Source: Deltaproteobacteria bacterium (GTDB lineage Bacteria > Myxococcota_A > Polyangia > JAAYKL01). From it: a stretch of 64,000 nucleotides of DNA. The notes under the pieces were generated by a model. That model did not search any database. It was given only the letters and a program-made list of their open reading frames with translations, and had not been told where the DNA came from. The first letter of the stretch is position 1, and every line of letters starts with the position of its first letter. Positions 42,849 to 63,156 of the stretch are shown in pieces. Location of the stretch: contig JAKQNG010000197.1 in assembly GCA_029565915.1 (NCBI GenBank), forward strand, positions 12,759-76,758, in the 5' to 3' direction. A program made the translations under genes and the position numbers.

Positions 42849-43226
42849 TCAGATCGGTTCGATGAAGGGTTGGACATTTGCCAGCAGTTTGGGGCCGATG
42901 CCGGGAACCCTGATCAGCTCCTCAACATCCTCAAAGGGACCGTGAAACTCCCGGTACTGCACAATGGCGCGGGCCCGCTCTGATCCGATGCCCGGCAGAT
43001 ACTGGAGTTCCATTTCGTTGTCCCGGTTCAGGTCCACACCCACACCGCACAGATGCCGTCGGGAAGCGGGCTCCTGCCTTACGGTGGGTCCGCAGGACGG
43101 CTTTACGGAATCCGGTTTGTCCTCGTCCGACGGGTGAAAGGTTTGCGGGCAACGGAGGAGGGCCGTTGCGACAATCACAAACAGGGTGATGGCTGCGGCA
43201 ATGATTCGATGATGGACACTTTTCAT
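42849..43226 (-). CDS. ComEA-family helix-hairpin-helix DNA-binding protein
   Basis: N-terminal TM, then ELQYLPGIGSERARAIVQYREFHGPFEDVEELIRVPGIGPKL, a tandem HhH ComEA motif. Confidence 0.7.
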   Translation of the reverse strand: MKSVHHRIIAAAITLFVIVATALLRCPQTFHPSDEDKPDSVKPSCGPTVRQEPASRRHLCGVGVDLNRDNEMELQYLPGIGSERARAIVQYREFHGPFEDVEELIRVPGIGPKLLANVQPFIEPI

Positions 43227-43314
43227 GTTGTTCAATATCCTTCGCGCGCGTTGCAACAACAGATATCGGCCGTTCTGTCCGGATTGTGCCGAAAAAATGC
43301 GCGGGAAAGAAAAT

Positions 43315-47965: not shown

Positions 47966-49834
47966 TCAGCGGTTGGTGCCGGGTTGGGCGCTGACCACGA
48001 AGCGGGCATCAACGGAAGGCAGCATCTGGGATTTACCGCCGGAGAAGTCCACGTCTTTCATCCCGGACACGGTGCCGTACACGTTGACCATGCTTTCGAG
48101 GCCCGCGTCGGTTTCACCCCGGAAGGTGACGTGCACCGCGCACCGGCCGCCCACCGGACATCCCCTGTCCACATACAGTAGAAATACGGTGACCCCCGCC
48201 GCCGTGTTGATGTTGATGATCCGCCCCGACAGGACGATTTTTCGGCCCGCGTGAACGGCCGTGTTCCGCGTCAGCTTCGGATAGTCAAATTTCGGGTCGG
48301 CGTCGGCCTTCCAGCTGTCGATGAAGGGTTGCAGGCTCTCCACGCGGCTGATTTCCAGTTCTTGCCGGTTCGGCGCGTGGTCGGCCAGGCGGGATGTGAC
48401 GGAGATGCGGTGGGGACCGGTCTTGTCCAGCGGAATGATCGTGGCGAAGCCGGATGCGTTGGACAAAACCAGTGCACCGTTTACCGTCACCTCCGCCTTG
48501 TCTCCAGCAGTGCCGGCAACTGTGACTTCCGCCGTGTCCACCACCGCGCCCGGCGCCGGTCGATCGATCTGGAGCGGCGTGACGGGAATGGCAATCAGGT
48601 GTTGACCCGATTCGGAACGACCGTCCGGATCGGTCAACTGGAAATTCAGGGTGTAGCGCAGTTCGTCGCCATCGGATCGGGTCTGGTGCTTGCGGATTTC
48701 CTCCAGCGCAATACGGTGGGTGCAGGTGTTGCCGGCCAGGGGGCAGGGCTGGTTGTTCACGGTGACGCGAAAGCCTTCCGCCACCTGGAACTTCACCTCC
48801 ACGGCCGCCGGATCTGCGGCGAGCAGGGACAGATCGTTGGTCACCACATGGCGCAGGGTGATGGGAAAGCTGCGTTTTTCCTGTCGGCCGTCCGGCTGGA
48901 CGAGGGTGAATTCCACGAGGTTGGTGCCGAGCACCAGCGCGGAGCGGGGCAGGAGGAACTGGGCGCTGCCTTCGGTCATGGGAATGGTCTGTCCCTGCAC
49001 GCTCAGGGAAGAACCCGGCGCCGCACCGGGAATCTGCAGTGTGACCGTCAGGTGCTGACCGTCGGCCGTCGGCGCGATCTGGGGCACCGGCTCGTTGCGA
49101 CCGGACAACAAGTAGCGGACGCCCAGAAACGCAAGCAGTCCCAGTACAACCGTTCCAGCCACGGCCACGGCAATGATGAGTCCCGTGGATGGTCCCCGGG
49201 ACGGTGTGTCATCTTCCTCTTCCGGTTCCGGCGGTGCGGACTTTGCCTGCGCGGGTCGTGCCTTCTGGGAAGGATCAGGAGGCGCCACGCGGGTTTCCTC
49301 CAGATCGGGGGATGGTCCGGTGGCCGGTGTGGTTACGGGCGCCCCGACGGCGGTCGCCTGCTTTGCCGCCTGGATGGCGGCCTGCACATCGCCGGAATCC
49401 ACCGCCGGCATTCCCAGCATGGTTCTGGCTGTATCCACGGCCACAGGGGCGCGTTGCGCGGTGGGCGCGGCAGGTTCCGCCTGTGCGGGTTTCGCGGAGG
49501 CCATCCGGATCATCGGAACGCCGGCCGCGGGCCTGGCAGTTTCATTCAGGTTGACCGGCGGCGCGCCGAGCATGGTGCGATTGGAGGCGAATCCCGGTTC
49601 CGCCGGCGCGAGGGCCGCGGGCTGGTGCGCCACGGGTTGCACCTGAACCGGTTTGACCGGGGAGGGCTTTGCCTGGGCTTCCGGAATCTGGGGCGCCCGT
49701 CCGAACAGCATGGTCTTTGCCGGCATCGATCCATCGGTCTGGACCGGACGCGCAACCGCCGGTGCCCCACCGCTCAGGGGAGTGCCACAGGCGGCACAGA
49801 ATTGCACGCCATCCGCATTCGAGGTACCGCACAT
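47966..49834 (-). CDS. Zinc-ribbon / single-TM protein with RTMLG repeats and beta-rich extracytoplasmic domains
   Basis: N-terminal CxxC-x12-CxxC ribbon (MCGTSNADGVQFCAACGTPL). A Pro/Ala-rich linker carries three K/RTMLGxP motifs. One TM (LIIAVAVAGTVVLGLLAFLGV), then ~370 aa of beta-strand-rich sequence. Confidence 0.55.
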   Translation of the reverse strand: MCGTSNADGVQFCAACGTPLSGGAPAVARPVQTDGSMPAKTMLFGRAPQIPEAQAKPSPVKPVQVQPVAHQPAALAPAEPGFASNRTMLGAPPVNLNETARPAAGVPMIRMASAKPAQAEPAAPTAQRAPVAVDTARTMLGMPAVDSGDVQAAIQAAKQATAVGAPVTTPATGPSPDLEETRVAPPDPSQKARPAQAKSAPPEPEEEDDTPSRGPSTGLIIAVAVAGTVVLGLLAFLGVRYLLSGRNEPVPQIAPTADGQHLTVTLQIPGAAPGSSLSVQGQTIPMTEGSAQFLLPRSALVLGTNLVEFTLVQPDGRQEKRSFPITLRHVVTNDLSLLAADPAAVEVKFQVAEGFRVTVNNQPCPLAGNTCTHRIALEEIRKHQTRSDGDELRYTLNFQLTDPDGRSESGQHLIAIPVTPLQIDRPAPGAVVDTAEVTVAGTAGDKAEVTVNGALVLSNASGFATIIPLDKTGPHRISVTSRLADHAPNRQELEISRVESLQPFIDSWKADADPKFDYPKLTRNTAVHAGRKIVLSGRIININTAAGVTVFLLYVDRGCPVGGRCAVHVTFRGETDAGLESMVNVYGTVSGMKDVDFSGGKSQMLPSVDARFVVSAQPGTNR

Positions 49835-50000
49835 ACTGCAGGTTACAGCCAAGAGAATCCTCCTTCGAGGCAAGCATGATTCGTCAATCGACACGCACGG
49901 AACGATTGGAACGATTGAACCGGGATCGTACTTTTCCACGGTCACCGCGTCAATTGATTAACGGTGAGAGTGGGGCAAAGGAGAGGGGCGTCCGGTGGTG

Positions 50001-50987
50001 TCAGGGCGCGTACAGAGTCCGGTAGCGACCCCGGTTTCCCGAAAACTCGACGATGTGGGCCATTCCGGCGCTCCGCCCACCGTTGGCCATCAGTACCGGT
50101 GCAGCCGAAGCGCTGCCCGCCTGAAGGATGAAGGAGGTATGCCAGAGGCCCGGCGGGATGGGGTCTTCTCCCGAAAGAGGCGTGGCGCTGCCGCCGGATT
50201 CCACCACATGGCCATGCAGCCCGAACCGCACCTCGTGGTCGACCATCGCGTCGGTGATGGCGGGATCGCCGATGTTCACGGCGCCTCGTCCCCGGTCCGC
50301 GGCGGCAGGACCCCGGCCCCGGGGAGGCGTCGGACTGACCAGCACCGCCGTCATGTTGGAAGGGGCGGCAGACACGATGGCCGTGACATCTTCGGGTTCA
50401 TAGGAACAGCCCTGATCTCCGGCCTCCAGATAAAAAGGGTTCTGTTCACCGGGCAGGGAGAGGAAGCAGATGTTTTTCATGAACACGCGCCGCACCAGGG
50501 TCAGGTCCACGATCTGCGGATGGGTGGTGCGGAGGGCAGCGATGGCGTTGCGGAAGCCGTGGAAGCTCTCCTGTGCGCCGGGAATCACCAGTATCGGAAT
50601 AGGCGCCTGTGCCAGGGCGTCCAGGATGGTTCTGATCTGCGATTCGGTGCGGCCGGTATCCCCTGCCACGATGATGGCCTGCACCCGGGCCGCCTTGAAC
50701 CGGTCCAGAAAATACTTGATGGCGGTAAGGGTTTCCGGTGCGGTGTCGGACAGGCCGGCGAGAAGGCCCACACGGACCACCGCGCTGTCGCCGCCGGTGA
50801 TTTTCAGGTCGCTGCCGTTGCGGATGGCGGTAAGGGGCGGCAGGGATATCTTTTCGGTCCGTCCGTCATCCTGCGCGTCGGCGCAGCGGAGAAATTCATG
50901 ACCGTCCCGGCGATCCGACGGAGGCTGGCTCCCGCCGCGACATCCGGCGGACAGCAGAAGCAGGAACAGGACGGTCAGGCGGTTCAT
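50001..50987 (-). CDS. Calcineurin-like metallophosphoesterase lipoprotein
   Basis: Lipobox LSAGC. GDTG..., GNHE-like and LHGH motifs spaced as in MPEs. Confidence 0.6.
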   Translation of the reverse strand: MNRLTVLFLLLLSAGCRGGSQPPSDRRDGHEFLRCADAQDDGRTEKISLPPLTAIRNGSDLKITGGDSAVVRVGLLAGLSDTAPETLTAIKYFLDRFKAARVQAIIVAGDTGRTESQIRTILDALAQAPIPILVIPGAQESFHGFRNAIAALRTTHPQIVDLTLVRRVFMKNICFLSLPGEQNPFYLEAGDQGCSYEPEDVTAIVSAAPSNMTAVLVSPTPPRGRGPAAADRGRGAVNIGDPAITDAMVDHEVRFGLHGHVVESGGSATPLSGEDPIPPGLWHTSFILQAGSASAAPVLMANGGRSAGMAHIVEFSGNRGRYRTLYAP

Positions 50988-51655
50988 CGGCGGACCGACA
51001 CGTCGAAGACCGTGGAATTTCCGGGTCGCTGTCGGAACTGCAGCACGGCGAGGCCGAGCTGAACGATGCGGCTGTCGGGTTTCTGAAGCGTGATGTGTTC
51101 GTCGTCCAGCTTGACTACCCGGCAGTCCCCGAACTGCCGATGGCAGACCGTATCGCCGGGAGCGGGAAGGGGCGGTTCCTCCTCATTCCACAGATGGGAG
51201 CGGGAACCCTGCTTCTCAAGCGTCGCTGATACCTCGATGGCCCGGTGCCAGTGTGCATCCGCCGCCTTTTTTTCGTTCGTTTCCTTCGGCACAGAAGCGG
51301 CATCGTCTGCGCGAAGGGGCGTGAACGTCAGCTCGAGCAGAGACGACTCACCGCCCGTCAAGCGCCCGCCGACCACCATGATGCCGTTGTCGGTATGCTT
51401 GGCAATGAGGCATCGGTAGTCGGAGATGACCATCCCCGCAGCACGCCGGATCCGGCCCTGCAGGTTGAGCAGGTCAAGAGGTCCTTCGATGTGAAGGGTG
51501 TTGCCAGCAGCGTCCGTCAGCTGTGCGCTGCGCAGGTTTCCGAAACCGCACACATCGCAGAATTCCCCCGCGGGAATGGCGATGTCGTCGATGGCGGCGG
51601 GCAGGTTTGACGGGGTTTCCAGCGTTTTCGCGATGGGTCGATCCTCGGTTGGCAT
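50984..51655 (-). CDS. Hypothetical protein, ATGA-coupled to the metallophosphoesterase
   Basis: 223 aa with coding-like composition. No recognised family. Confidence 0.35.
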   Translation of the reverse strand: MPTEDRPIAKTLETPSNLPAAIDDIAIPAGEFCDVCGFGNLRSAQLTDAAGNTLHIEGPLDLLNLQGRIRRAAGMVISDYRCLIAKHTDNGIMVVGGRLTGGESSLLELTFTPLRADDAASVPKETNEKKAADAHWHRAIEVSATLEKQGSRSHLWNEEEPPLPAPGDTVCHRQFGDCRVVKLDDEHITLQKPDSRIVQLGLAVLQFRQRPGNSTVFDVSVRR

Positions 51656-52406: not shown

Positions 52407-53228
52407 TCAGCGGTTGTATTTTGCCAGAAGCGGACGGTAGTCCTTGTCGGAAGCGGGAATCACGGCCGTGAGAGTGAGGGACCGACACAAATCCTTTCCC
52501 TCGGGCCGGTCGCACAGACCGACGAGGGACTTGCGGATGGCGTCGGCCTTTGCGCGCCCATCATTCAGCACCACCACGGCGGGCGCGGGAACCGGCGCGG
52601 ATGTGTGGATGATCTGCAGATCAGACGCAAATTCCAGCTCGCTCATGTGATCCTTTGCATCCTGGTCGATGAGGGCGGCGTCCGCATCACCGCGGTGCAC
52701 GTCCCGCAGGGATTTCAACGGTCGCCCCTGGGACACGAGCCGGATGTCGGTCGGAGCCTTTTTGTCGAGCAGGACGTTGAACACGTATTTCGGGTCGTGA
52801 ACCACGACGCCGCTCATCGTCTTGCCCGAGAGCGCCTTCAGATTCGCCGCGCCATCCTTGCGGGTAACCACGTAGTAGGTCTGTTCTCCGCGGCCATTGG
52901 CGTGGACCCGGGCGATGACCTGCATCTTCTGGGTCTTCTGGCTCATGGCGTAAACCGACGGCTCCATGAGGGCGATGCCCGGTTTGACAGATGCCAGCCG
53001 CTCGGCCGCATCAGCGCCGTCCGGGATGAAAATGCCCTTCATGCTGAAGGGTGTCTCTCCCATGTCGGTTTCCAGATAGCGGAGCATCTGATCCACGTAG
53101 GGCTGGGCCTGTTCGGTGGTGCCGGGAAACCCGGGCAGCAGCAGGAGCAGATCGGTGGCCGCCGCCACCGCGCTCAGGCAGGTGACAATTACCGTGCCGA
53201 GAATGGTCAGTCTGATGTGCCGTTTCAT
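52407..53228 (-). CDS. Periplasmic substrate-binding-like protein (PhnD/SsuA/transferrin-type fold, orphan)
   Basis: Signal peptide plus a two-lobed alpha/beta pattern typical of type-2 SBPs. No cognate ABC permease/ATPase is adjacent. Confidence 0.4.
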   Translation of the reverse strand: MKRHIRLTILGTVIVTCLSAVAAATDLLLLLPGFPGTTEQAQPYVDQMLRYLETDMGETPFSMKGIFIPDGADAAERLASVKPGIALMEPSVYAMSQKTQKMQVIARVHANGRGEQTYYVVTRKDGAANLKALSGKTMSGVVVHDPKYVFNVLLDKKAPTDIRLVSQGRPLKSLRDVHRGDADAALIDQDAKDHMSELEFASDLQIIHTSAPVPAPAVVVLNDGRAKADAIRKSLVGLCDRPEGKDLCRSLTLTAVIPASDKDYRPLLAKYNR

Positions 53229-53246: not shown

Positions 53247-53999
53247 CTACTCCCTCATCAGGGAGCGGGTGGTGAACGTGCTGTCGGGAATGCCCTGGTT
53301 CACTTTGCATTCGAAGAACCGCAGCTCCGTGCTGGAGCCGGTCTTGTGATCCGTGTAGACCATCTTTACGGGAATCGTGATGACGCCGAAGGTCTGCCAG
53401 TCGCTGCGGACCTGGGATTTCACGAGGGTGCCCTGGGAATTGTAGGATTCCACGCGCTCCACGCCGCCGTATTTTTTTGAAACCGTCACCAGCATGTAGC
53501 TGTAAATCGTTTCAGTGCCCTTCTGAGGGGTCATCCGGAGAACCCAGACCTTGTCATCATCCTTGATGATCTTCGCATCCCAGCCTTTGGACAGGGACGC
53601 GGTGCCCAGTTCCTCGGCAGAGATGTCGGTGCCCATGAAGCCCTGATCCTGTACATGGGAGGCCACCCGCCGCACGCGTTTGTAGCTGGGCATGTAAACA
53701 TAGGTGAGCCCGTCGTCCGTGGTGAGCACCGCCATGCCGCGCACGTCGCCGGGGCCGGTAAACGTGATGCGCTTCATGTTGAGACCCTTGAGGACCGCTT
53801 CAAAGGTCATGGTCTTGATTTTTTTACCGTCCCGGATGACCGAAACTTCCGCGTTGTAGGTGGTGTCGGACACCTTGAGCAGGTTATCGTCCACGGTGTC
53901 GAGGATCTGCTGCACGGTCTTCTTCTGCGCATGCGCGACGCCTCCCATGACAAGGAGCGACGCGAGGGTGAGCATGAAAAGGGATTGTTTTCGATTCAT
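53247..53999 (-). CDS. LolA-like outer-membrane lipoprotein-sorting family protein
   Basis: Signal peptide MNRKQSLFMLTLASLLVMGGVAHA and the ~250-aa beta-rich pattern of the LolA_like family (recalled). Confidence 0.45.
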   Translation of the reverse strand: MNRKQSLFMLTLASLLVMGGVAHAQKKTVQQILDTVDDNLLKVSDTTYNAEVSVIRDGKKIKTMTFEAVLKGLNMKRITFTGPGDVRGMAVLTTDDGLTYVYMPSYKRVRRVASHVQDQGFMGTDISAEELGTASLSKGWDAKIIKDDDKVWVLRMTPQKGTETIYSYMLVTVSKKYGGVERVESYNSQGTLVKSQVRSDWQTFGVITIPVKMVYTDHKTGSSTELRFFECKVNQGIPDSTFTTRSLMRE

Positions 54000-54265
54000 C
54001 AGCGATTGTTCCTTCCGTTGTATCCGGAATCCCGGTTCATTCCGAGGAGTCTGTCTGTGGACGAACCCGACCCGGGGGTTATTCATCCCGTTCCGCAGCA
54101 GGTATCTAAACCATTTTCAATGACCTGTTAAGTTATTCAACTCCCTGTTCCACAACATGCAAAACATGACATTGATATCAACGAAAAGGCATCCGGCGCG
54201 GACGTGCATTGGCCCGGCAGCGATACCGGGGAGTGTGGCCGCGAGCGATGCATCAGGGTGGGACC

Positions 54266-54679
54266 TCAGCGGGGGACGATTTCCAGCGTGTGGGTAATTT
54301 GCGCGGACTTTGCCAGCATGGCGGAAACGCCGCAGAACTGATTCTTCGACAGTTCGATGGCCCGCTCGATGTGGGGTCGATCGGCTTCGTCCGCCACAAA
54401 GCGATAGGTGATGTGAATGGTTTTAAACACCATTGGATGGGTGCTCGTCTGCTCGGCCGCCACGTCGATGTCGAACCGGTCCCAGGTCACCTTCTTCTTT
54501 TCGAGGATGGTTGCCACGTCGAGGCCCGTACACCCCGCCAGGCCGTGAAGGACCATGGCCTTGGGCGTGGGTGCTTCGCCTCTGCCGCCGGACGCCGCCG
54601 CCGCATCCATGGTGACCGACGCGGCCCCGTCGCCGCTGTGAAACCGCTTGTTCCCCTGATAACTGGTCGTGATCTGCAT
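54266..54679 (-). CDS. OsmC/Ohr-family peroxiredoxin-like protein
   Basis: MQITTSYQGNKRF...LHGLAGCTGLDVATILEKKK...QFCGVSAML. Both conserved OsmC cysteines are present. Confidence 0.8.
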   Translation of the reverse strand: MQITTSYQGNKRFHSGDGAASVTMDAAAASGGRGEAPTPKAMVLHGLAGCTGLDVATILEKKKVTWDRFDIDVAAEQTSTHPMVFKTIHITYRFVADEADRPHIERAIELSKNQFCGVSAMLAKSAQITHTLEIVPR

Positions 54680-54755
54680 GATGTTTCTCCTCTGACCGTG
54701 TCGGCTGAATCGAAACATGCACACGACACAGCCGATTGTAAAGAGACGGTCGTAC

Positions 54756-55676
54756 CTATCGGGATTCGCTGTCCGGCGGGGCAGATTTCGGTCGGCGGAA
54801 GCGAATGATGCCTGCAACGCCCGCGAAGATGAGGGCGGCACTGACAAACGTGCTGCCGTGAACGGTTTCATCGAGAAAGAACCAGCCCAGAAACACGGCG
54901 ATAACGGGATTCACAAAGGCGTAGCTGACGGCCAGGGTGGGAGACAGCACCTGCAGGCAGAAAATATAGGCGGTAAAGGCGACCAGTCCGCCGAAGACGG
55001 TCACATAAACGAAGGCGATCCACGGGCCTCTCCCATCGGGCAGCACCGGTGTTTCGAAAATGGCCGTTGCCACGAGAAAGCCCACCGAGGCAATGAGCTG
55101 CTGCCATCCCGCGGAAGCGATGGACGAGACGGCAACGGGACGCCGGGCCTGCAGGACGGAGCCCAGGGACCAGAAGACCGGCGCACAGAAAAGCGCAATT
55201 ACCCGGCCGATATCCTGTGGCGGCACCCGCGACAGCGTGCTGCCGTTCAGAATGAGCAGTCCCGAAAATCCCAGCAGGAGAGATAGAATCAGCCCCGGGG
55301 ACGGGCGGCGGTGGTCGGCGATGGAATCGATGAGCGTCGTCCACAAAGGAAGGGTTCCCACGGACAGGGCCGCATAACCCGAGTCGATGCGCTGCAGAGA
55401 CCAGGTAATGAGGCCGTTTCCGCCGAGCCAGAGCAGCAGCCCGGCGGGCACGAGGATGACGAAATCCGCCAACCCCGGACGCACTGCTTCTTTGCGGAGA
55501 GCCGCAAATGCCAGCAGCAGGGCACCGGCGGCCGCCGTCCGCAGGGCCACCATGAAGAACGGCGAAAACCCGTCCTCTCCCACGGCGATGGACAGGGCCA
55601 GATAGGTGGAACTCCAGATGACATAAAGGGAAAACAGGGCGGCAAGGCCCTTGCGATGTGGAGGGACGAAGTTCAC
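54756..55676 (-). CDS. EamA/DMT-family transporter
   Basis: 10-TM duplicated EamA topology. Confidence 0.8.
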   Translation of the reverse strand: MNFVPPHRKGLAALFSLYVIWSSTYLALSIAVGEDGFSPFFMVALRTAAAGALLLAFAALRKEAVRPGLADFVILVPAGLLLWLGGNGLITWSLQRIDSGYAALSVGTLPLWTTLIDSIADHRRPSPGLILSLLLGFSGLLILNGSTLSRVPPQDIGRVIALFCAPVFWSLGSVLQARRPVAVSSIASAGWQQLIASVGFLVATAIFETPVLPDGRGPWIAFVYVTVFGGLVAFTAYIFCLQVLSPTLAVSYAFVNPVIAVFLGWFFLDETVHGSTFVSAALIFAGVAGIIRFRRPKSAPPDSESR

Positions 55677-55677
55677 G

Positions 55678-56118
55678 TCAGTTGTTGGACGCCTCGTCGG
55701 GCGGCCATTTCTGCTCCACCGGGTCCGTCACCATGCCAAGCTTGGGAATGCCTGCCTTCTTGACGATGGCCATCACCTGCACGACAAAGCCGTAGGGAAT
55801 GGATGCGTCCGCCTGCAGATACAGTTCGCCCTCCCGCTGGAGGCGGGCGTTGGAGATGAGCGTCTGTTCGAGCGCCTCATGGGGAATCCGGGTTTCGCCC
55901 AGAAACACGTTGCGTTGCCGGTCGATGGTCATGACGAGTTTGGATTCGTCAACTTCCATTGGCGCTGCCTCGGCTTTGGGCAGATCCAGTTCCACGCCAC
56001 GGTCCATCATGGGCGCTGTGATCATGAAGATAATGAGGAGCACCAGCATCACGTCCACCAGGGGCGTGATGTTGATGTCGCTCATGGGAGTGCCGGGGCC
56101 GTTACCGGACAGTGCCAT
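55678..56118 (-). CDS. ExbD/TolR-family biopolymer transport protein
   Basis: ITPLVDVMLVLLIIFMITAP signature and single TM. Confidence 0.85.
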   Translation of the reverse strand: MALSGNGPGTPMSDINITPLVDVMLVLLIIFMITAPMMDRGVELDLPKAEAAPMEVDESKLVMTIDRQRNVFLGETRIPHEALEQTLISNARLQREGELYLQADASIPYGFVVQVMAIVKKAGIPKLGMVTDPVEQKWPPDEASNN

Positions 56119-56134
56119 CTGCGCAACTGCCTTT

Positions 56135-56884
56135 CTACTTGAAGAAGTGGCGTTTGACGATGTTCACGAAATCCGCCGAAAAGTTGTCCATCTCCGACGA
56201 CAGCACGCGGATGCGCCGGAGAAAGTAGTTATATGCGATCACCGCCGGAATGGCGGCCAGCAGGCCGATGGCCGTGGCAATGAGGGCCTCGGAAATGCCC
56301 TGGGATACAACCTCCATGCCCGCGGAGCCGCTGGCGCTGATCTGCATGAAGGAAATCATGATGCCGATGACAGTACCGAACAATCCCACAAAGGGTGCCG
56401 TCGATCCGATGGTGGCCAGAAAAGGCACCATGCTTTCGAGGTGCGTGACCTCGCTGGTCATGGCGCGACGCAGGGCCCGCTCCACGTTGCCGATGGCGCC
56501 GGCGCTGGTTTCATCCGACGTGGATTCGCTTTCCTTTTTCTGGGCCTTCAGCTTGGACAGCTCAATGTACCCCGCCTTGAACAACGACGAAATGGGGCTC
56601 CGTTCATATCGATCGGCGGCCTGGTAGATTTCGTCGAGGCGTTTGGAGGACCAGAAGATATTCAGGAAGCGGACGGTCTGTACCTGTGCGCGGCGGATCT
56701 GAATGAATTTGTAAACCACGATGAAAATGCCGATGAGGATGAACAGCACCAGCATCGCGATGACGCCTTTGACAATGGGGGACGCCTCCGCGATGAGCCG
56801 CATCATTTCAGCCATATTGCCGGCGGTGGCACCGCTTTTCCCGGGTACCGCACCGGCCAGGATGGTCGTAATCGTTTGATTCAT
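56135..56884 (-). CDS. MotA/TolQ/ExbB-family proton channel
   Basis: 3-TM pattern with the conserved C-terminal region (GLFGTVIGIMISF...EALIATAIGLLAAIPAVIAYN). Confidence 0.85.
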   Translation of the reverse strand: MNQTITTILAGAVPGKSGATAGNMAEMMRLIAEASPIVKGVIAMLVLFILIGIFIVVYKFIQIRRAQVQTVRFLNIFWSSKRLDEIYQAADRYERSPISSLFKAGYIELSKLKAQKKESESTSDETSAGAIGNVERALRRAMTSEVTHLESMVPFLATIGSTAPFVGLFGTVIGIMISFMQISASGSAGMEVVSQGISEALIATAIGLLAAIPAVIAYNYFLRRIRVLSSEMDNFSADFVNIVKRHFFK

Positions 56885-56998
56885 GGTGTCCCTTTTAACC
56901 GTTTAAAATGGTCTGTCTGCCCATGTTTATCGTTGCTTCCGCGCAAATTCGCAATTTTTCGATCCATTTTCCCGGTGGGAACGCCCGGGGAGAGCAGA

Positions 56999-58582
56999 CT
57001 ATTTCCGCTTTTCCATGTGGGCGTCGTAACAGGACATGAAGTCGCGCACCGCCCGGCGGGGATCAATTTTCAGAAACCGGGCGAATTCCGCCACAAAGCC
57101 CCGCGTGTACACGGCGGCCGGCAGATCGTCGTACCGCTCGTCCTCGATGGCCTGGAGGTAGCGGATGGACACCTTGGCGCGGTTGGAGATGTCGAGGAGC
57201 TCCACGTTGTTTTCGCGCCGGACACGGGCGAGAAATGCGCCGTCGACAAAGTGATCGTCTGTCAGCATGACCTCGGGAAGGGACTCCTGCGTCGCCGCCA
57301 CCGTTCCCGCGATGGAACGCTGCCGGGCCGCTTCCGCGTCCTTGTCCCGATGAAAGCCGCCGGGAAACTGTTCCCGATCGTACCGCCGCCGCTCGAACCG
57401 ATCGAGCAGCCGTGCATGGGCCGTTTCCGCCTGCTTTGTAAAGTCGTCCTGCTCTTCCCGCGCACACGCACCCCGCAGAGAAATGCCCCCGGGGCCGAAC
57501 CACAGGCGGATTTGCCGGATGGCGCGGCGCACTTCCTCTTCGGAAGCGCCCGGATAGATTTCAAGCAGCTCATAGTAATTCTGGTCCTTTGTGGCCGGCG
57601 GCAGAGGCACCGGCGCCACGAGTTCCCGGAGCTCCAGGTTCATCAGGCGTCGGACCACCTGCTCCAGATCCTTACAGGCCCGGCTGCGGGCAAACTCGAT
57701 GAGCAGAGGACGCCCCCGCCGCTGCGCCAGCCAGACATTGTCGTCCCAGCCGATGGAACCCAGGAGGACCGGAATGAATCCGAGCCAGCGGGTTGCCGCA
57801 CTGACCATGGCCGCGCCGAGTTCATCGTCTTCCCGGATGCGGATCTGGTTCACCACCAGCAGAGGGTGAAACGTCCGGGACAGATCTGCCGCAATGCCGG
57901 CAGCGGGGTTCTCCAACTGCATCAGGCGTTCCACAATCCGGCGCGGTGTCAGCGGTTGGAAGCCGCGATTTGCATGGGCGAGAAGAGATCGGGCCGCGTC
58001 GTTTCCGGCAAGCTGTCCTTCGAGGAGGCAGGCCCATGCGGATGAAAGGAATCGCCATGTGCCCTCCACGGCGTCGGGCATGGGCATTGTCACGCAGACC
58101 CGGTAATCGGCAGCACAGAAGAGGTGAAGGGTGAAATCATCGAGGCGCATGGGCAGATCGACGATGACCACATCCGTCTCGACACTGCGGATGCCCCGCC
58201 ACAGCTGTTGCGCGCCGTCAGCGCCCCTCTCCGCGGCCAGGGCAATGAATCGGGTGTCCTGCAGCAGCTGGAGTCCGGCGATCCCGGTGGCCACCGCGGC
58301 CTTCGGAATATCGCAGAAATCCCCGTCAATGGAAAACGCCGTCGGCGCCGGCGGCTCACTGCCCAGCCAGGTATGCAGGCCGGGCGTATCCGGATCGGCG
58401 TCCACGAGGAGGACCTGCCGGCCGATCTGCGCCAGAAAGATACCGAGATTAACCGCTACCATGCTGGCGCCGACACCACCCCGGGCACCCCGGACGGCGA
58501 TGGTGCGTCGGGCCGGTCGCTGTGGCTCAGCCGAATGGGACAATGGCGCCTCCCCGGGGACGCGGGCATCCGCTCCCGTCAT
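56999..58582 (-). CDS. Degenerate ParA/MinD-fold (pseudo-ATPase?) – J-like domain (no HPD) – RodZ-type HTH fusion protein
   Basis: MinD/ParA fold with P-loop GARGGVGAS (both Walker-A lysines replaced), VLLVDADPD and TDVVIVDLP. Then NYYELLEIYPGASEEEVRRAIRQIRLWFGP (J-domain-like, with WFGP in place of HPD). The C-terminus is an HTH_25/RodZ-like helix-turn-helix. Start uncertain; the ORF extends to 58894. Confidence 0.55.
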   Translation of the reverse strand: MTGADARVPGEAPLSHSAEPQRPARRTIAVRGARGGVGASMVAVNLGIFLAQIGRQVLLVDADPDTPGLHTWLGSEPPAPTAFSIDGDFCDIPKAAVATGIAGLQLLQDTRFIALAAERGADGAQQLWRGIRSVETDVVIVDLPMRLDDFTLHLFCAADYRVCVTMPMPDAVEGTWRFLSSAWACLLEGQLAGNDAARSLLAHANRGFQPLTPRRIVERLMQLENPAAGIAADLSRTFHPLLVVNQIRIREDDELGAAMVSAATRWLGFIPVLLGSIGWDDNVWLAQRRGRPLLIEFARSRACKDLEQVVRRLMNLELRELVAPVPLPPATKDQNYYELLEIYPGASEEEVRRAIRQIRLWFGPGGISLRGACAREEQDDFTKQAETAHARLLDRFERRRYDREQFPGGFHRDKDAEAARQRSIAGTVAATQESLPEVMLTDDHFVDGAFLARVRRENNVELLDISNRAKVSIRYLQAIEDERYDDLPAAVYTRGFVAEFARFLKIDPRRAVRDFMSCYDAHMEKRK

Positions 58583-58667
58583 CGAAATTGACTGATTATC
58601 TAAACGAATTGAACTAGAATTCCAACCCCATAAGAGCCGGGGCAAACCGCCTCGACCGGAAAGACCG

Positions 58668-61607
58668 ATGACCGCAGAAGGCACCAATGTCGCACTGATC
58701 GCGGAGCTGCACGCCATCCTGAACGCATGGCGGTACCGCGCGATGATGCAGATCGCGTTATCCGGGGCAGGATGGATGGGCACCCTGTGCGTTGTCTTCC
58801 TTGCGCTATTTGTCTTCTCCATGGGTTGGTGGGGCGGCGGCGGGCTGGAGACAGCGGGATGGACGCTGTTTGCACTGCTCCTGTCGGCGGTCACACTGCT
58901 CCTCCTTCTGCTGCCCCTGTGGCAGGTGCGATCCCGTTTGCACCTGGCCCGGATGATCGGACGCCATCATCCCCAACAGCTCTCCCTTCTCGTCTCTGCC
59001 TGTGAGCTGGCCGCGGCGCCCCACAACAGCGCGTTTTCCAGCACCCTCATCGCGTGCCACCTGACGTGGACCATCCACTTCCTCAAATCGATTTCCGCCG
59101 ATGCTGTCTTTCCATCCCGCAGGATGATATCCGCCCTGTCTGCCCTCATCCTGAGCGGCCTCGGTACCTGGGCCTTCGCGGCCACCTTTCCGGACACCAT
59201 GGAGAGCGGATTCGAAACCCTCGTCAGTGAGCATCTGGTTCCTGCCGAAAGCGCGGAGGAAACGTCCGGCGATCCGATCATCGGCGATCTGAGCGCCAAG
59301 CTCCGGTACCCAGACTACCTGGCCCGGGACGAACGCGTATTCGAGTCTCTTTCCGGCGGCATCGAAGCGCCGGTCGGTACGCTGGTGGTACTGCAGGGGT
59401 CCTCCCTTGTGCCGGATGCCCTTGGCGGCGCCATCCGTCTGTCCAGCGGACAGACCTCCGAGCTGCTGCTGCTGCAGGATGGTCGGTTGACCGGCAGTTT
59501 CATCGTCGATGACATCGAATGGTTCGCCCTGTCGGTGTACGGGGCGGGCGGAACAGTCAACGGCCCTCGCCGATCGGTGACCGTGGAGCCGGACCAGAGC
59601 CCGTCCATCCGCTTGCTGTCCCCGACCGCCGAGCTGGAAGTGGAAGGCACCGGCGAGGTAGCCATTGAATTCGAGGCCAACGACGACCACGGCATCGGCC
59701 GCGTGGATCTGATCATCTCGGGCACCCCGGATCTCGAGATTCACCGGACCATCGCCCACGGCGCGGCGGATCTCACCCATCTGCGTTCGGGCTACCGGTG
59801 GCCGGCGGGCTCCCTGCAGCTCGATGATGTGTCCGATGTGGAACTCAGCCTGCGGGTCTACGATGACGACACCATCCGAGGGCCCAAATTCAGCACCTCG
59901 GAATCCGTGCGGGTCCAGGTGATGACCCCCGAAAACCGCCGCCGCGATTTGCTGGAGCGTCAGACAAAGATCCTCGATGGGCTGGTGGACCTGCTCGGTG
60001 AGCGACTGGAGCATCCGATACCCGCGGGCAGAGACGGGGACGACGCGGCAAGGGAACGGTTCATCCGCGTAAGAGGTCTCACCGAAGACCTGTTGAACAT
60101 GCTGGCCCGACTGACCTCCCGGTTGCCGGGCCATGATCCCGGGACGTCGGGTCTGCTGGACACCTATGATCGCATTCGACAGGACATCGCCAGCCAGCTG
60201 CTGTTCGAATCCCGCCACAATGAAATGCCCCTCGCTCCCTTCCGACGGCGGACAGATGCGGACAAGGTGACCGTTCGCCTGCTGGAACGGGCCATCTCCC
60301 AGGTGGACGGCATCATCCTGGATCAGCAGTTTTCCGGCCTCACCTCCGGTGGCGAACTGCTGGGGCTCCAGCAGGAGGAACTGCAGCGCCTGCTCCAGAT
60401 CTACGAAAAAGGTCGCTCGGAAACGTCGCGTCGGGGCATCCTCGCGGTGATCGAAAAAATGGAACGGGCGGCCGGTCGACTGGCCAATCTGGTCGCTAAG
60501 GTCCGCGGACAGGTCCCGGACGCACGGGTGGCGGCCGCAGGTTCCGACGCCGTGTCGCTGCAGGAAGAATTCCGCCGGTTGCGGGAATTACTGACCGCAG
60601 ACCGGGTGGACGAGGCAATGGCCCTTTCTTCGTCGCTGTCCCGAACCCTGCGGGAACTGATGACCTCGCTGGAAAGCGGACACCTGGCATTCCGCACGGA
60701 GCGGTTCGGCGAACAGGATGCCTTCATGCAGAACCTGCTCGAACGGATCTCGGCCATCGAGATTGACCAGCGGGAGCTGCGCCGCAACACCATCGGGCTG
60801 AGCCGGCAGTACAAGGAACGCCTGCTGGCGCTCATGAAGAGCGATATCGATCCCCTGGTAAAATCCCAGCTGCCGGTGGTACGGGACATGCGAACCCGTC
60901 TGGCATCTCTGCAGAAGAAGCGCGCCGGGAAAATCGACGCGGCAGACCTGCAGGAAATGGTCATCCGCATGGAATCGGTTCTGAAACAGGGCGACCTGGA
61001 TCAGACCCTGCAGGTCGCCGGGGAAATTGAACGGCGCCTGTCCGCGGCGGAGGCGTCTGAAGATGCGGATCACACATTGCGCAGCCTGCGTGGGGCGGCG
61101 GCGCAGATTGTCGAACGGATCAACCGGGCGTTTCCCGCACCGGCCCGGGTCTTCTCGGAATCGGATCGACGCCGACTGCGGAATCATGCGGGCTCCCAAC
61201 GGCACGTCGCGGGCCGGACGACGAAGCTGCGCGCCTGGATTGACGAACAGGAAAACCGGATGCAGTTTATTTCCGGCCGGGCAATGGGCGAGCTGGCGGA
61301 CGCCGCTGATGACATGCGAAAGGGCGCCTCCGCCCTGGAAGAACAGAACCTGGAAGAGGCGATCCGACGACAGACCGTGGCCCTGGACGCCCTTTCCGCC
61401 CTGCAACAGCACCTGCGCAGCGGAACGCGGCCGGTGCTGTTCGAATCCCGTCCGTCAGATGGGTCGCGACGGGTGGAAATTCCCACGGTGGAAGACTACG
61501 AAGTGCCCGGCGAGTTCCGGGAGGATATTCTGGAGGCCATGAAGGCCGGCGCGCCGGAGCACTACAAGGATGCCATCAAGAGGTATTATGAAACCCTCGT
61601 ACGCTGA
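58668..61607 (+). CDS. Large membrane protein: 4 N-terminal TMs plus a ~800-aa alpha-helical domain (DUF4175-like)
   Basis: Four N-terminal hydrophobic helices, a long predicted helical/coiled region, and a C-terminal motif VPGEFREDILEAMKAGAPEHYKDAIKRYYETL. I recall this from DUF4175-type proteins; not verified. Confidence 0.5.
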   Translation: MTAEGTNVALIAELHAILNAWRYRAMMQIALSGAGWMGTLCVVFLALFVFSMGWWGGGGLETAGWTLFALLLSAVTLLLLLLPLWQVRSRLHLARMIGRHHPQQLSLLVSACELAAAPHNSAFSSTLIACHLTWTIHFLKSISADAVFPSRRMISALSALILSGLGTWAFAATFPDTMESGFETLVSEHLVPAESAEETSGDPIIGDLSAKLRYPDYLARDERVFESLSGGIEAPVGTLVVLQGSSLVPDALGGAIRLSSGQTSELLLLQDGRLTGSFIVDDIEWFALSVYGAGGTVNGPRRSVTVEPDQSPSIRLLSPTAELEVEGTGEVAIEFEANDDHGIGRVDLIISGTPDLEIHRTIAHGAADLTHLRSGYRWPAGSLQLDDVSDVELSLRVYDDDTIRGPKFSTSESVRVQVMTPENRRRDLLERQTKILDGLVDLLGERLEHPIPAGRDGDDAARERFIRVRGLTEDLLNMLARLTSRLPGHDPGTSGLLDTYDRIRQDIASQLLFESRHNEMPLAPFRRRTDADKVTVRLLERAISQVDGIILDQQFSGLTSGGELLGLQQEELQRLLQIYEKGRSETSRRGILAVIEKMERAAGRLANLVAKVRGQVPDARVAAAGSDAVSLQEEFRRLRELLTADRVDEAMALSSSLSRTLRELMTSLESGHLAFRTERFGEQDAFMQNLLERISAIEIDQRELRRNTIGLSRQYKERLLALMKSDIDPLVKSQLPVVRDMRTRLASLQKKRAGKIDAADLQEMVIRMESVLKQGDLDQTLQVAGEIERRLSAAEASEDADHTLRSLRGAAAQIVERINRAFPAPARVFSESDRRRLRNHAGSQRHVAGRTTKLRAWIDEQENRMQFISGRAMGELADAADDMRKGASALEEQNLEEAIRRQTVALDALSALQQHLRSGTRPVLFESRPSDGSRRVEIPTVEDYEVPGEFREDILEAMKAGAPEHYKDAIKRYYETLVR

Positions 61608-63156
61608 TCGCCGCCTCCGGATGTTTGCAGTGGTGCTGGGGCTGGCCGCCGTCTGCCCACCAGCCGCGGCTGCGGAGGTCATCGCGGCGGAGCGATTGAT
61701 CGACGCCTATCGCCTGGAGGAAGCGGCCCGGCAGGTTCCCGGCGAGCGTGCAAAGACCGCTGCAGAGCTGTACGTACAGGGAAAATTCCTGTTCTTCTCC
61801 GGCGACTATGCCGGGGCGGAGCCGTTGCTCCTCCAGGCCATCGAACGCAACCGCACCGAGCTGGACTGGAAATACCTGCGGGAACAGGTCCGGATTTCTG
61901 CACAGATGACCGCCGCCATGGTGGAAACGCAATTCCCGGACGGGCGGATGGTGTTCTTTCACGAGGATGGACCGGATTCCCTGCTGGTGTCCTATGCCGC
62001 GGAAACCCTTCTGGCCCAGGGCCGCGCGTTGAAGGCGCTGCTGGGAGATGAGGTGCCGCAGATCCGCGTGTATATCGTGCCCACGGTGGAAAAGCTGTCA
62101 GACCTGTGCGGACTGCCGGTGGAACAGATCGAGGCCACCGGCACCGTGGCGGTGACCCGCTACAACCGCATCATGCTGCTCTCGCCCCGGGCCGTCCTCA
62201 ACGGATATCCCTGGCTCGACACCCTGGCCCACGAGCTGGTTCACATGAGCGTGTCTCGGGTTTCCATGAACGAAGCGCCCATCTGGCTCCACGAGGGCGT
62301 GGCAAAAATTCTGGAGTCCCGCTGGCGGGACGGCCTCTCCGGCAACATGCCCCCGGAATCCGCGTGGCTGCTGGACCGGGCCGCGCGGGAAGGTCGACTG
62401 CTGCCCCTGCGGAAGTTTCACCCCTCCGTGTCCTGGCTGCCCAGTCAGGAAGATGCGGCCCTCGCCTACGCCCAGGTGCAGAGTTTTCTCGCGTGGCTGG
62501 AGAACCGCTATTTGAACAACAATGGGCTCCGCCATCTGCTGGAGCGACTCGCCGGAGGGCGGACCGTGGAGGCGGTGCTGAAGGAGCTCACCGGGTACGA
62601 GATGAAAAAACTGTACCGCTGGTGGCAGGAGCAGCTGCGGGGCACGCGGCAGGCCCCTGCGGAGATGGTGCCCTTGATGAAACGCCGCTACCTGAAAGGG
62701 GAATCCGCACCTCACGGGCTGGCGGATGCGGCTCTGTCCGACGATGCCCGCCGCTACCTGCGAATCGGCGACCTGCTGCGCCTGCGCGGTCACACGGCGG
62801 CGGCGGTGGAGGAATACTCCCTCGCCATGCAGGGCGCCGAAGGCATGGTGCCGGACGTGTTCGACCGGTTGACGGGGGCTCTGCTGGAGCTGCAGCGCAA
62901 CGACGAAGCGCTTTCCATTCTGGAAAAGGCGCAGGCGTATTACCCCTGGCATTCACCGGTGTTTCTCCACCTGGCGCAGGTGTTCATCCGTCGCGGCGAT
63001 CGAACGCGGGCAGAGGCGCATCTGCGGCAGGTCATCGCCCTCAACCCGTTTCACCCCGACGTGCACTGTCTGCTGGCCGACGTGTACCGGGGTCACGACG
63101 AAAAGCGGGCGGCCATGGAAAAAGAACACTGCCTGCTGATCGGAAAGAAGAACTGA
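61588..63156 (+). CDS. Secreted Peptidase_MA-like zinc metalloprotease with C-terminal TPR repeats
   Basis: Signal peptide. HELVH...(19 aa)...WLHEGVAKIL matches an HExxH + downstream Glu (Peptidase_MA_2-like) arrangement. The C-terminal third is TPR-like. Overlaps the upstream gene end. Confidence 0.55.
   Translation: MKPSYADRRLRMFAVVLGLAAVCPPAAAAEVIAAERLIDAYRLEEAARQVPGERAKTAAELYVQGKFLFFSGDYAGAEPLLLQAIERNRTELDWKYLREQVRISAQMTAAMVETQFPDGRMVFFHEDGPDSLLVSYAAETLLAQGRALKALLGDEVPQIRVYIVPTVEKLSDLCGLPVEQIEATGTVAVTRYNRIMLLSPRAVLNGYPWLDTLAHELVHMSVSRVSMNEAPIWLHEGVAKILESRWRDGLSGNMPPESAWLLDRAAREGRLLPLRKFHPSVSWLPSQEDAALAYAQVQSFLAWLENRYLNNNGLRHLLERLAGGRTVEAVLKELTGYEMKKLYRWWQEQLRGTRQAPAEMVPLMKRRYLKGESAPHGLADAALSDDARRYLRIGDLLRLRGHTAAAVEEYSLAMQGAEGMVPDVFDRLTGALLELQRNDEALSILEKAQAYYPWHSPVFLHLAQVFIRRGDRTRAEAHLRQVIALNPFHPDVHCLLADVYRGHDEKRAAMEKEHCLLIGKKN

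Follow-up and report, generated by a model that had tools for sequence, protein, structure and literature searches.

Tol-type stator genes, a degenerate MinD-like protein and a DUF4175–peptidase pair: probably a lineage-specific juxtaposition

Genes and proteins of the locus

In the window, which is the whole 64-kb stretch of DNA analysed here, two groups of genes diverge from an 85-bp spacer. On the minus strand, the gene of a protein with ParA-like, J-like, and HTH_25 domains (ParAJ; 56999–58582) is followed by those of a TolQ-like stator subunit (56135–56884), a TolR-like stator subunit (55678–56118), and a tightly abutting EamA/DMT-family transporter (54756–55676). The plus strand beyond the spacer encodes a predicted inner-membrane protein of the DUF4175 family (58668–61607) and, coupled to it, a peptidase with an HExxH motif and TPR repeats (61570–63156). 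All genes of the original prediction are present where it placed them and had been read correctly, as judged from the open reading frames and codon-position GC (GC3 of 0.74–0.80). Genes were called by the rule that GC3 exceeds GC1 and GC2, which yields the expected genes, and also antisense artefacts in very GC-rich distant loci; the census of distant loci is based on tblastn and not on this caller.

The divergent spacer (58583–58667) has a GC content of 48%, compared to about 63% in its surroundings, in agreement with the AT-rich 85-bp region that had been predicted. No conserved operator, inverted repeat, or promoter motif in the spacer is common to the related clade loci. A scan of positions 54600–58800 identified no promoter-like sites, and terminator-like sites occurred at chance level. 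The 114-bp spacer between the ParAJ and tolQ genes (56885–56998, 50% GC) contains neither a terminator-like nor a sigma-70-like site that the scan could find.

ParAJ has a length of 527 residues, and its domains were assigned using Pfam, NCBIfam, and alignment A1. The start is the ATG at position 58582, as indicated by N-terminal conservation in 15 homologues; the 631-residue open reading frame is over-extended, and the 487-residue JGI call loses the P-loop. The NTPase domain scores above the cut-offs of the Pfam models ParA, AAA_31, and CbiA, and the family profile matches the structures of FleN (1.7e-31) and MinD (about 1e-23) in the PDB. The Walker A motif reads GARGGVGAS, without either of the two lysines; the Walker A′ and B aspartates are kept (alignment A1). 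The J-like domain has GPG at the position of the HPD tripeptide and reaches 18.6 bits with the Pfam DnaJ model, the cut-off of which is 27.8. HPD is absent wherever the J-like segment was captured by the pattern, as it was in about 50 of 70 ParAJ sequences. The designation of the protein as a pseudo-ParA/J protein was thus correct. The family profile also matches DnaJ J domains (about 1e-8) and CT009 (1.6e-8), the structure of which we take to be a RodZ-type HTH. The C-terminal 60 residues score 64.7 bits with HTH_25 and weakly with HTH_19, and match the HTH proteins CT009 and 3fym. Hydropathy gives no transmembrane segment, and ParAJ should therefore be cytoplasmic.

Species-representative genomes contain 265 relatives of ParAJ, and among the matches listed 80 out of 80 come from Myxococcota/Polyangia-type metagenome-assembled genomes. 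Walker A motifs of the GxS type occur throughout the window's clade, and GGVGKS is found in most other Polyangia homologues. A motif census indicated that the lysine loss recurs in several lineages irrespective of the neighbouring genes. Co-evolution of the lysine loss with the DUF4175 neighbourhood was considered and rejected, because the same loss occurs in Polyangiaceae lineages with a DsbA/PMT_2 context. The searched literature yielded no paper on the ParAJ architecture. The family is an uncharacterised architecture, and its combination of a degenerate MinD-like domain, an HPD-less J domain, and a RodZ-type HTH may be of interest for the study of bacterial cell organisation.

The TolQ-like subunit has 249 residues and three transmembrane segments. 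TIGR02796 (tolQ) is the best-scoring of all MotA/ExbB/TolQ models, with 218.1 bits against a cut-off of 221, whereas the exbB model gives 138.5 bits against 206. The TolR-like subunit (146 residues; PF02472, 102.6 bits) has a single transmembrane segment, residues 17–35, with a conserved aspartate (PLVDVML). It scores 122.6 bits with TIGR02801 (tolR; cut-off 127.3) and 92.6–94.7 bits with the ExbD models (cut-offs 153–216), so that both subunits fall 3–5 bits below the equivalog cut-offs of NCBIfam for TolQ and TolR. In the PDB, the TolQ-like subunit matches TolQ with 128 bits and ExbB with 89 bits, and the TolR-like subunit matches ExbD with 77 bits and TolR with 58 bits. The pair had been predicted to be ExbB and ExbD: the family assignment holds, but the NCBIfam scores are nearer to TolQ and TolR. 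It is, as proposed, a TonB-less motor pair downstream of the pseudo-ATPase gene on the same strand, with no TonB_C or TonB_2 gene in the 64-kb window. TolA, TolB, Pal, and CpoB have no match in the window or the close-clade loci. Identity of TolQR within the clade is 65–84%. The nearest TolQ relatives outside it (P0209, P0213, P0215) are 59–63% identical and are encoded in canonical tolQ-tolR-tolA(TonB_2)-tolB-pal(OmpA) operons.

The EamA protein (306 residues; Pfam EamA, 116 bits) starts with a GTG positioned 1 nt past the tolR stop codon, and is therefore probably encoded in the same transcript as tolQR. Its adjacency to tolR is specific to the window organism; the same arrangement is found in locus L164, and EamA is absent from the other loci.

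The DUF4175 protein was predicted to be a helical protein of about 980 residues with four transmembrane segments. Its length is 979 residues, but hydropathy identifies three strongly hydrophobic segments (34–52, 66–84, and 153–171) rather than four, which together with a K/R-rich loop (86–152) make up an N-terminal helical membrane region. The family, which had been suggested for the domain search, is supported by PF13779 (40.7 bits, gathering cut-off 27.3), with only positions 663–740 of the 825 in the profile being matched, and NCBI names the homologues "DUF4175 family protein". In the AlphaFold2 model (pLDDT 78.5), residues 205–419 form two Ig-like beta-sandwiches, and residues 421–918, about 500 in all, are entirely helical and are followed by a disordered linker. 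A Foldseek search of the model against the PDB returned generic tandem-Ig matches only. The conserved C-terminal motif ending in YYETL that had been noticed is real: residues 948–978 form an invariant two-helix motif, in which R951, D953, L955, A957, M958, P963, Y966, Y973, Y974, E975, L977, and V978 are identical in the 8–11 homologues compared, down to 23% overall identity. A word-indexed search for homologues gave eight proteins, to which a pattern scan of metagenome contigs and a full HMM search were added; the latter delimits a family of 1,560 cluster representatives (E≤1e-30), mostly myxobacterial-looking. In the literature searched, DUF4175 is mentioned only as a short N-terminal match in AdvA of Acinetobacter. 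The protein was also considered as an analogue of TolA or TonB and rejected on two grounds: it has no invariant histidine or SHLS-like transmembrane motif, and TolQR is near in 2 of 73 loci outside the clade.

The peptidase open reading frame from position 61570 encodes 528 residues and overlaps the DUF4175 gene by 38 nt; an alternative ATG at 61621 lies 13 nt past the DUF4175 stop codon and would give 511 residues. The predicted overlapping HExxH…E metalloprotease with TPR repeats is accordingly supported in its motif and repeats, and in its overlap only if 61570 is the start. Peptidase_MA_2 (PF13485) scores 47.9 bits against a cut-off of 32.4. The zinc motif is intact, with HELVH at residues 226–230 and WLHEG about 17 residues downstream. 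HExxH is kept in 48 of 48 homologues, and W-x-[HQ]-E-G follows it in every homologue for which the motif region was inspected. TPR_19 and other TPR models match residues 393–517, and the N-terminus is hydrophobic (residues 20–38). Judged by its sequence, the protein is an exported gluzincin metallopeptidase.

Gene neighbourhood inside and outside the clade

In the window's clade, the peptidase and DUF4175 genes diverging from that of ParAJ are kept in 13 of 15 loci from species-level genomes, at 37–54% protein identity. The flanks are fully reshuffled, and the other genes of the window recur at no clade locus. The retention of the arrangement despite the reshuffled flanks and the low identity hints at selection for proximity. 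Several clade loci have YqeY inserted between the DUF4175 and ParAJ genes, and two (L006 and L014) have ParAJ and no DUF4175. TolQR directly follows ParAJ in only 6 of 14 clade loci; it lies within 15 kb in at least eight loci, and elsewhere in the clade unrelated genes displace it by 4 kb (L167) or 15 kb (the L004 genome). The 64-kb window and the close-clade flanks gave no match to MoxR, DUF58, BatA, or an ECF sigma factor. Since TolA, TolB, and Pal are likewise not nearby, the usual partners of the TolQR and DUF4175 units are unaccounted for in this lineage.

Outside the clade, each unit has other neighbours. The peptidase adjoins DUF4175 in 50 of 55 distant loci (23–30% identity), so that the two genes form a conserved pair, as the proposal of a membrane scaffold with its own protease implied. 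ECF sigma/anti-sigma is the usual divergent neighbour of the pair, with an ECF sigma gene in 39 of 53 distant loci. MoxR-DUF58-BatA genes are near it in 26 of 42, with MoxR adjacent in 22 and further downstream in 4. ParAJ is found upstream of DUF4175 in none of 53 distant loci, and the two are neighbours only in the window's own clade; TolQ is within 10 kb of the DUF4175 or peptidase gene in 2 of 73. In one locus (L081), a TolQR pair is positioned 6–8 kb upstream of an ECF-DUF4175 operon. The 65 ParAJ loci outside the window's clade contain neither DUF4175, nor the peptidase, nor adjacent TolQR. The neighbours there are divergent DsbA-like and RNase T genes and a PMT_2-like gene, or SelA, a small open reading frame, and RluD; the PMT_2-like gene overlaps or abuts that of ParAJ in 35 of 43 loci.

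Synteny in support of one functional unit, as originally proposed, thus extends to the DUF4175–peptidase pair in general and to its junction with ParAJ in the clade, but not to the rest of the genes. At 65 other Polyangia loci the neighbours of ParAJ are different but conserved to an equal degree, and the DUF4175–peptidase pair has different partners in 73 distant loci. The searched literature contained no paper on the combined gene set.

Origin of the arrangement and alternative explanations

The region is probably a lineage-specific juxtaposition of three separately evolving and separately inherited units rather than one dedicated machine, which leaves room for functional coupling of the units inside the window's lineage. 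The tolQ-tolR genes, perhaps with eamA, would encode a proton-driven stator of the Tol type. On the model of the TolQR and ExbBD structures, a TolQ pentamer would surround a TolR dimer and protons would pass via the transmembrane aspartate of TolR. The pair is most likely the Tol-Pal motor of the organism, split from tolA-tolB-pal in the clade, an assignment suggested by homology and by the operons of the relatives. The original prediction had allowed for such a canonical locus as evidence against a single unit, and the data come close to it, as tolQRAB-pal operons contain the genes of the closest TolQ relatives from outside the clade. The loss of the P-loop lysines and of HPD makes ParAJ most likely a cytoplasmic scaffold or adaptor that functions independently of nucleotide hydrolysis, and MreB or DNA may be the binding partner of its RodZ-type HTH. 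The DUF4175 protein would be anchored in the inner membrane, with its two Ig-like domains and helical stalk of about 500 residues facing the periplasm. The TPR domain of the peptidase may dock on the DUF4175 C-terminal motif, and the pair may serve the envelope as a membrane-tethered protease or in quality control.

The single machine of the original prediction, if restricted to the clade, is rather unlikely. In it, TolA-less TolQR would energise DUF4175, ParAJ would be a cytoplasmic scaffold for positioning, and the peptidase would have the scaffold or its cargo as substrate; the ancestral MoxR-DUF58-BatA and ECF partners would have given way to ParAJ and TolQR. The persistence of the arrangement in reshuffled flanks is in favour of such a machine, as is the presence of ParAJ and TolQR in clade neighbourhoods from which MoxR, DUF58, BatA, and ECF sigma are missing. 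The modelled layout of DUF4175 resembles that of TolA, in that a membrane anchor is followed by a long helical region in the periplasm and by a C-terminal element that is conserved. Its conserved K/R-rich cytoplasmic loop could contact ParAJ, and the TolQR pair near the ECF-DUF4175 operon of L081 points in the same direction. However, TolQR adjoins ParAJ in only six of 14 clade loci, with unrelated genes inserted in others, YqeY intervenes between DUF4175 and ParAJ in several, and L006 and L014 have ParAJ without DUF4175. Furthermore, there is no association among the loci surveyed outside the clade, the DUF4175 transmembrane segments lack an invariant histidine or SHLS-like motif, the intergenic region contains no conserved element, and the nearest outgroup TolQ genes are canonical Tol-Pal genes. 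It is very improbable that DUF4175 is a new TolA- or TonB-like force-transducing partner of TolQR, with a dead ParAJ scaffold and the usual partners exchanged; if true, this would be a previously undescribed energised envelope machine. Cooperation of the five genes in the clade is weakly supported; if real, it would put a Tol-type motor to a new use.

We consider it quite unlikely that TolQR is a specialised non-Tol motor for Agl-like gliding, TonB-like uptake, or another process, with partners elsewhere and unrelated to its neighbours. Myxococcota have multiple TolQR/ExbBD paralogues, TolA, TolB, Pal, and TonB are missing from the window and clade flanks, the scores narrowly miss the equivalog cut-offs for tolQ and tolR, and the TolR-like subunit scores higher against ExbD structures. 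Nevertheless, the window has a single TolR-like gene instead of the AglQ and AglS pair, the scores for exbB (138 against 206) and exbD (93–95 against 153–216) are far below the cut-offs, the closest relatives beyond the clade belong to tolQRAB-pal operons, and the within-clade identity of 65–84% fits a housekeeping role. The least probable of the explanations is that ParAJ is a DNA-binding regulator, the HTH of which controls the divergent DUF4175-peptidase operon from the 85-bp promoter region. The C-terminal HTH_25 match, the divergent layout with an AT-richer spacer, and the occupation of the divergent slot in distant loci by a regulator, ECF sigma, are consistent with such control. However, ParAJ has a RodZ/CT009-type HTH, and the RodZ HTH domain binds MreB, not DNA. 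The spacer has no inverted repeat or operator conserved across the clade, YqeY separates the two genes in several loci, and the same protein family occurs in unrelated contexts at 65 other loci. Juxtaposition of three units remains our preferred explanation.

Comparison with known systems

The TolQ-TolR stator of the Tol-Pal system (E. coli structures such as 8odt) belongs to the same two families as the window pair and shares its transmembrane layout, three segments in TolQ and one with an aspartate in TolR; the window pair is near the threshold of the tolQ/tolR equivalog models. Unlike Tol-Pal genes, it is preceded by ParAJ and followed by EamA, and tolA, tolB, pal, and cpoB are absent from the 64 kb. 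It differs from TonB-ExbB-ExbD in its scores far below the exbB and exbD equivalog cut-offs and in having no adjacent TonB. The Agl-Glt gliding motor of Myxococcus xanthus is likewise a TolQR-family motor of the Myxococcota without adjacent TolA, TolB, or Pal, but combines AglR with two TolR-like proteins, AglQ and AglS, whereas the window has a single TolR-like gene and then EamA. The nearest relatives of the window pair are Tol-Pal genes instead, and the neighbours scanned for domains included no recognisable Glt-type gene.

ParAJ is similar to the deviant Walker A ATPases MinD and FleN (FlhG) across the whole NTPase fold, but it does not have their KGGxGK[ST] motif, both Walker A lysines being replaced, and it carries a J-like domain and a RodZ-type HTH in the same polypeptide. 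It has no MinE/MinC or flagellar context, and its neighbours differ between clades. HTH_25 is common to ParAJ and RodZ, but is C-terminal in the former and N-terminal in the latter, and the transmembrane segment and periplasmic DUF4115 of RodZ are missing. The middle domain matches the J structures of DnaJ; in contrast to J-domain co-chaperones it has no HPD and is below the Pfam cut-off.

The original prediction could not be mapped to a described system. This is now half resolved, as the plus-strand pair fits the class of Bat/MoxR-DUF58-VWA operons, in which its partners, ECF sigma/anti-sigma and MoxR-DUF58-BatA, place it. In most relatives, the pair opens an ECF-sigma-linked operon, DUF4175-peptidase-MoxR-DUF58-BatA, which is a variant of that class: the distant DUF4175 and peptidase/TPR homologues are directly upstream of MoxR (AAA_3), DUF58, and BatA (two transmembrane segments and VWA). 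Examples of the class are batI of B. fragilis, bat of Leptospira, bb0170-bb0176 of Borrelia, and RL3499-RL3502 of R. leguminosarum, and such operons typically include a TPR protein and large membrane proteins whose function is unknown (PMC3557215, PMC5700661). [quoted passage not shown] The window peptidase resembles the periplasmic TPR component of Bat operons, but its gluzincin domain is intact. The Bat papers examined do not list DUF4175 as a component. ECF sigma/anti-sigma, the usual divergent neighbour, distinguishes the DUF4175 variant from Bat operons, and the combination ECF sigma/anti-sigma-DUF4175-gluzincin/TPR-MoxR-DUF58-BatA was not found described in the literature searched. Near the window pair and its counterparts in the clade, MoxR, DUF58, and BatA are absent. 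The practical gain is in annotation, as a "hypothetical" protein of 979 residues and its peptidase can be grouped under the Bat/MoxR-VWA envelope systems, and these long-unexplained systems gain two testable, putatively periplasmic components and a likely regulator.

Proteins of the divergent gene cluster

The window is chromosomal and GC-rich (about 62–64%), and pieces identical or near-identical to it are carried by JGI/ENA metagenome contigs, one of them bearing the title of an activated-sludge metagenome. Among the matches listed, the related genomes are all uncultured Myxococcota/Polyangia-type MAGs. The gene calls rest on an ORF listing and codon-position GC (GC3 of 0.74–0.80, higher than GC1 and GC2). 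The minus strand encodes EamA (54756–55676), TolR-like (55678–56118), TolQ-like (56135–56884) and ParAJ (56999–58582) proteins, the last with ParA-like, J-like and HTH parts, and the plus strand encodes a DUF4175 protein (58668–61607) and a Peptidase_MA_2/TPR protein (61570–63156). The ParAJ start at 58582, backed by the conserved N-terminal P-loop region in homologues, gives the divergent spacer exactly the predicted length of 85 bp; its GC content is 48%. The spacer contains no element conserved across the loci of the window's clade, the closest uncultured Polyangia-related genomes. The short motif TATGGATAnTACAAAA, located just upstream of the ParAJ ATG in L001, L004, and L007 and absent from the window, probably reflects the shared ancestry of these three closely related loci rather than a conserved site.

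The 979-aa DUF4175 protein clears the family threshold by matching part of the model. Where four transmembrane segments were originally predicted, it contains three strongly hydrophobic ones, and TM2 and TM3 are connected by a K/R-rich loop. The AlphaFold2 model (mean pLDDT 78.5) begins with a helical membrane region (residues 1–186) and two Ig-like sandwiches (205–419), continues with ~500 residues that are entirely helical (421–918), and ends in a pair of C-terminal helices after a disordered linker. Foldseek searches with the model returned generic tandem-Ig matches only. The C-terminal motif is indeed conserved and does not vary even among homologues with as little as 23% identity. The family comprises 12,306, 6,701, and 1,560 cluster representatives at E-values of at most 1e-3, 1e-10, and 1e-30, respectively, mostly full length; the few named members are from Myxococcota or 'Deltaproteobacteria' MAGs. 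The peptidase has a hydrophobic N-terminus, the motif HELVH...WLHEG, and C-terminal TPRs, and HExxH is present in 48/48 homologues.

ParAJ scores above the thresholds for ParA, AAA_31, and CbiA, strongly for HTH_25 (64.7 bits), and weakly against the DnaJ model (18.6 bits, cut-off 27.8). Among solved structures, the family profile matches FleN and MinD best over residues ~16–308, DnaJ J domains over the middle part, and, at the C-terminus, 3fym and CT009, the latter of which we take to be a RodZ-type HTH. The label 'pseudo-ParA/J/HTH' of the original prediction is accurate, since both lysines of the Walker A box are lost (GARGGVGAS) and GPG occupies the HPD position. The P-loop lysine (GGVGKS) is kept in most of the 65 examined loci outside the window's clade, and has been lost repeatedly, in that clade and in several Polyangiaceae lineages (GAS, GSS, GTS, GVS, and GCS among L001–L080); the losses are independent in several lineages. 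HPD is missing from all homologues whose J-like segment was captured. From these losses, ATP hydrolysis and Hsp70 stimulation seem dispensable in the family. The public JGI call of ParAJ (487 aa; L163:8423–9886 and L164:5017–6480) begins 40 codons late and lacks the P-loop (window 58463–58582), which is why its precomputed Pfam annotation contains HTH domains only.

The motor genes had been predicted as an ExbB/ExbD pair. A motor is present, but its subunits score best against the tolQ (218.1, cut-off 221) and tolR (122.6, cut-off 127.3) models and fall well short of the cut-offs for exbB and exbD. Against solved structures, the large subunit matches TolQ with 128 bits and ExbB with 89, and the small subunit ExbD with 77 and TolR with 58. 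Since a single nucleotide separates the TolR stop from the EamA GTG start (window 55676–55680), tolQ-tolR-eamA looks like one transcript; an EamA gene after tolR was seen in no contigs other than those of the window organism. The gap between ParAJ and tolQ is 114 bp, with no recognisable terminator.

Just upstream of the region (window 47966–49945(−) and 50001–51655(−)), one gene encodes a protein of 659 aa that carries a zinc ribbon at its N-terminus together with a Glucodextran_B-like domain, and two further ORFs (328 and 223 aa) have no Pfam match. Three window genes (43225–45795(+), 52407–53228(−), and 53247–54086(−)) may form a Bst-like set for the trafficking of lipids or sterols. They encode an MMPL/RND protein that weakly matches a sterol-sensing domain, a periplasmic binding protein that among NCBIfam models scores highest against the sterol transporter BstB (99 bits, well short of the cut-off of 350), and, next to the latter, a LolA_like protein.

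Neighbourhoods of homologous genes

A ParAJ alignment scan, with one genome per species, identified 265 relatives, and the loci of 80 were examined. In 13 of the 15 loci most similar to the window (40–54% identity), the DUF4175-peptidase pair divergently adjoins ParAJ, with a YqeY gene inserted in several; the clade loci L006 and L014 lack DUF4175. Downstream sequence is available for 14 clade loci, and TolQ-TolR comes after ParAJ in 6 of them. No other window gene recurs in any examined ParAJ locus, and background synteny is therefore essentially zero. The remaining 65 loci (32–37% identity), from Polyangiaceae, Sorangium, Haliangium, and Kofleriaceae, are devoid of DUF4175, the peptidase, and adjacent TolQR. 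Polyangiaceae loci have a DsbA-like gene and RNase T divergent from ParAJ and a PMT_2-like (GT-C type) membrane protein downstream, which abuts or overlaps ParAJ in 35/43 (L015–L080, e.g. L030:9998–13110); this context occurs in far more loci than that of the window. Haliangiales-type loci have SelA upstream, and a small ORF and RluD downstream. ParAJ is a Polyangia-wide cytoplasmic protein with clade-dependent neighbours.

Three distant DUF4175 homologues all lie in a DUF4175-Peptidase_MA_2/TPR-MoxR(AAA_3)-DUF58-BatA operon, two of them with a divergent ECF sigma and anti-sigma. Scanning metagenome contigs for the C-terminal motif yielded 322 relatives, and 80 loci were examined, 73 of them distant. 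At distant loci the peptidase is next after DUF4175 in 50/55, an ECF sigma is divergent upstream in 39/53, and MoxR comes immediately after the peptidase in 22/42 and at a greater distance downstream in 4/42, with DUF58 and BatA next. ParAJ is upstream in 0/53 and TolQ within 10 kb in 2/73; ParAJ precedes DUF4175 only among close homologues (3/3). Neither the window nor the close-clade loci contain MoxR, DUF58, or BatA.

TolQ homologues of at least 65% identity belong to the same clade, where tolQ-tolR is a two-gene unit. In the L004 genome, it lies ~15 kb from ParAJ, separated by unrelated genes. On an 886-kb contig (L167:6175–9823), ParAJ is separated from tolQR by a VIT-VWA gene, two small genes, and an ECF sigma that clusters with those beside distant DUF4175 genes. 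At L081:2006–9804, a TolQ-TolR-MshEN set is located 6–8 kb upstream of an ECF-DUF4175 operon. Both arrangements may be left over from an older linkage, or may be coincidental. The next-tier homologues (59–63% identity) are in canonical tolQ-tolR-tolA(TonB_2)-tolB-pal(OmpA) operons, which speaks against the motor as a part of the proposed module. TolA, TolB, and Pal were not detectable in the window or close-clade flanks. Most simply, TolQR is a Tol-Pal stator detached from tolA-tolB-pal in the window's lineage.

One module or three units

The original prediction joined five genes into one envelope module. Neighbourhood conservation bears out the DUF4175-peptidase pair widely and its link to ParAJ within the clade, but not a link to ParAJ or TolQR outside it. 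The pair is the sole association kept over a large evolutionary distance, and the evidence separates the region into three units: DUF4175-peptidase, ParAJ, and TolQR. By homology, TolQR would be a proton-driven stator working in the TolQR/ExbBD manner with a partner. ParAJ probably serves as a scaffold that does not depend on hydrolysis, and its RodZ-type HTH may bind MreB or DNA. The invariant C-terminal helices of DUF4175 would tether and present the TPR-gluzincin on the outer side of the inner membrane, and the two proteins would constitute an envelope protease or quality-control device, which in other lineages would be ECF-regulated and MoxR-VWA-assisted.

Functional coupling of all five genes, specific to the clade, is still tenable because they stay close while all their surroundings are reshuffled, and because the neighbourhood lacks the usual partners of the motor and of the DUF4175 pair. 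Nevertheless, we consider it unlikely, given the genes inserted between the units, the two clade loci without DUF4175, the spacer without a conserved element, and the lack of any association of the units outside the clade. DUF4175 also has no TolA-like transmembrane motif, and a new energised machine with DUF4175 as a TolA-like transducer is highly improbable.

Relationship to known systems

All proteins of the three units can be assigned to known families, and the motor is close to canonical. The literature searched contains no account of the MinD-like/J-like/RodZ-HTH combination of ParAJ, of the ECF-DUF4175 operon, or of its form in the window's clade. ParAJ is an uncharacterised architecture. 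Judged by its usual neighbours, the DUF4175-peptidase pair belongs with the envelope operons of the Bat/MoxR-DUF58-VWA class, which are known in Bacteroides, Leptospira, Borrelia, and Rhizobium, and the biochemical function of which is still unknown (PMC3557215, PMC5700661). The DUF4175-gluzincin/TPR-MoxR-DUF58-BatA operon with its divergent ECF sigma is a common, undescribed variant, and the form in the window's clade, truncated and without the MoxR part, is descriptively new.
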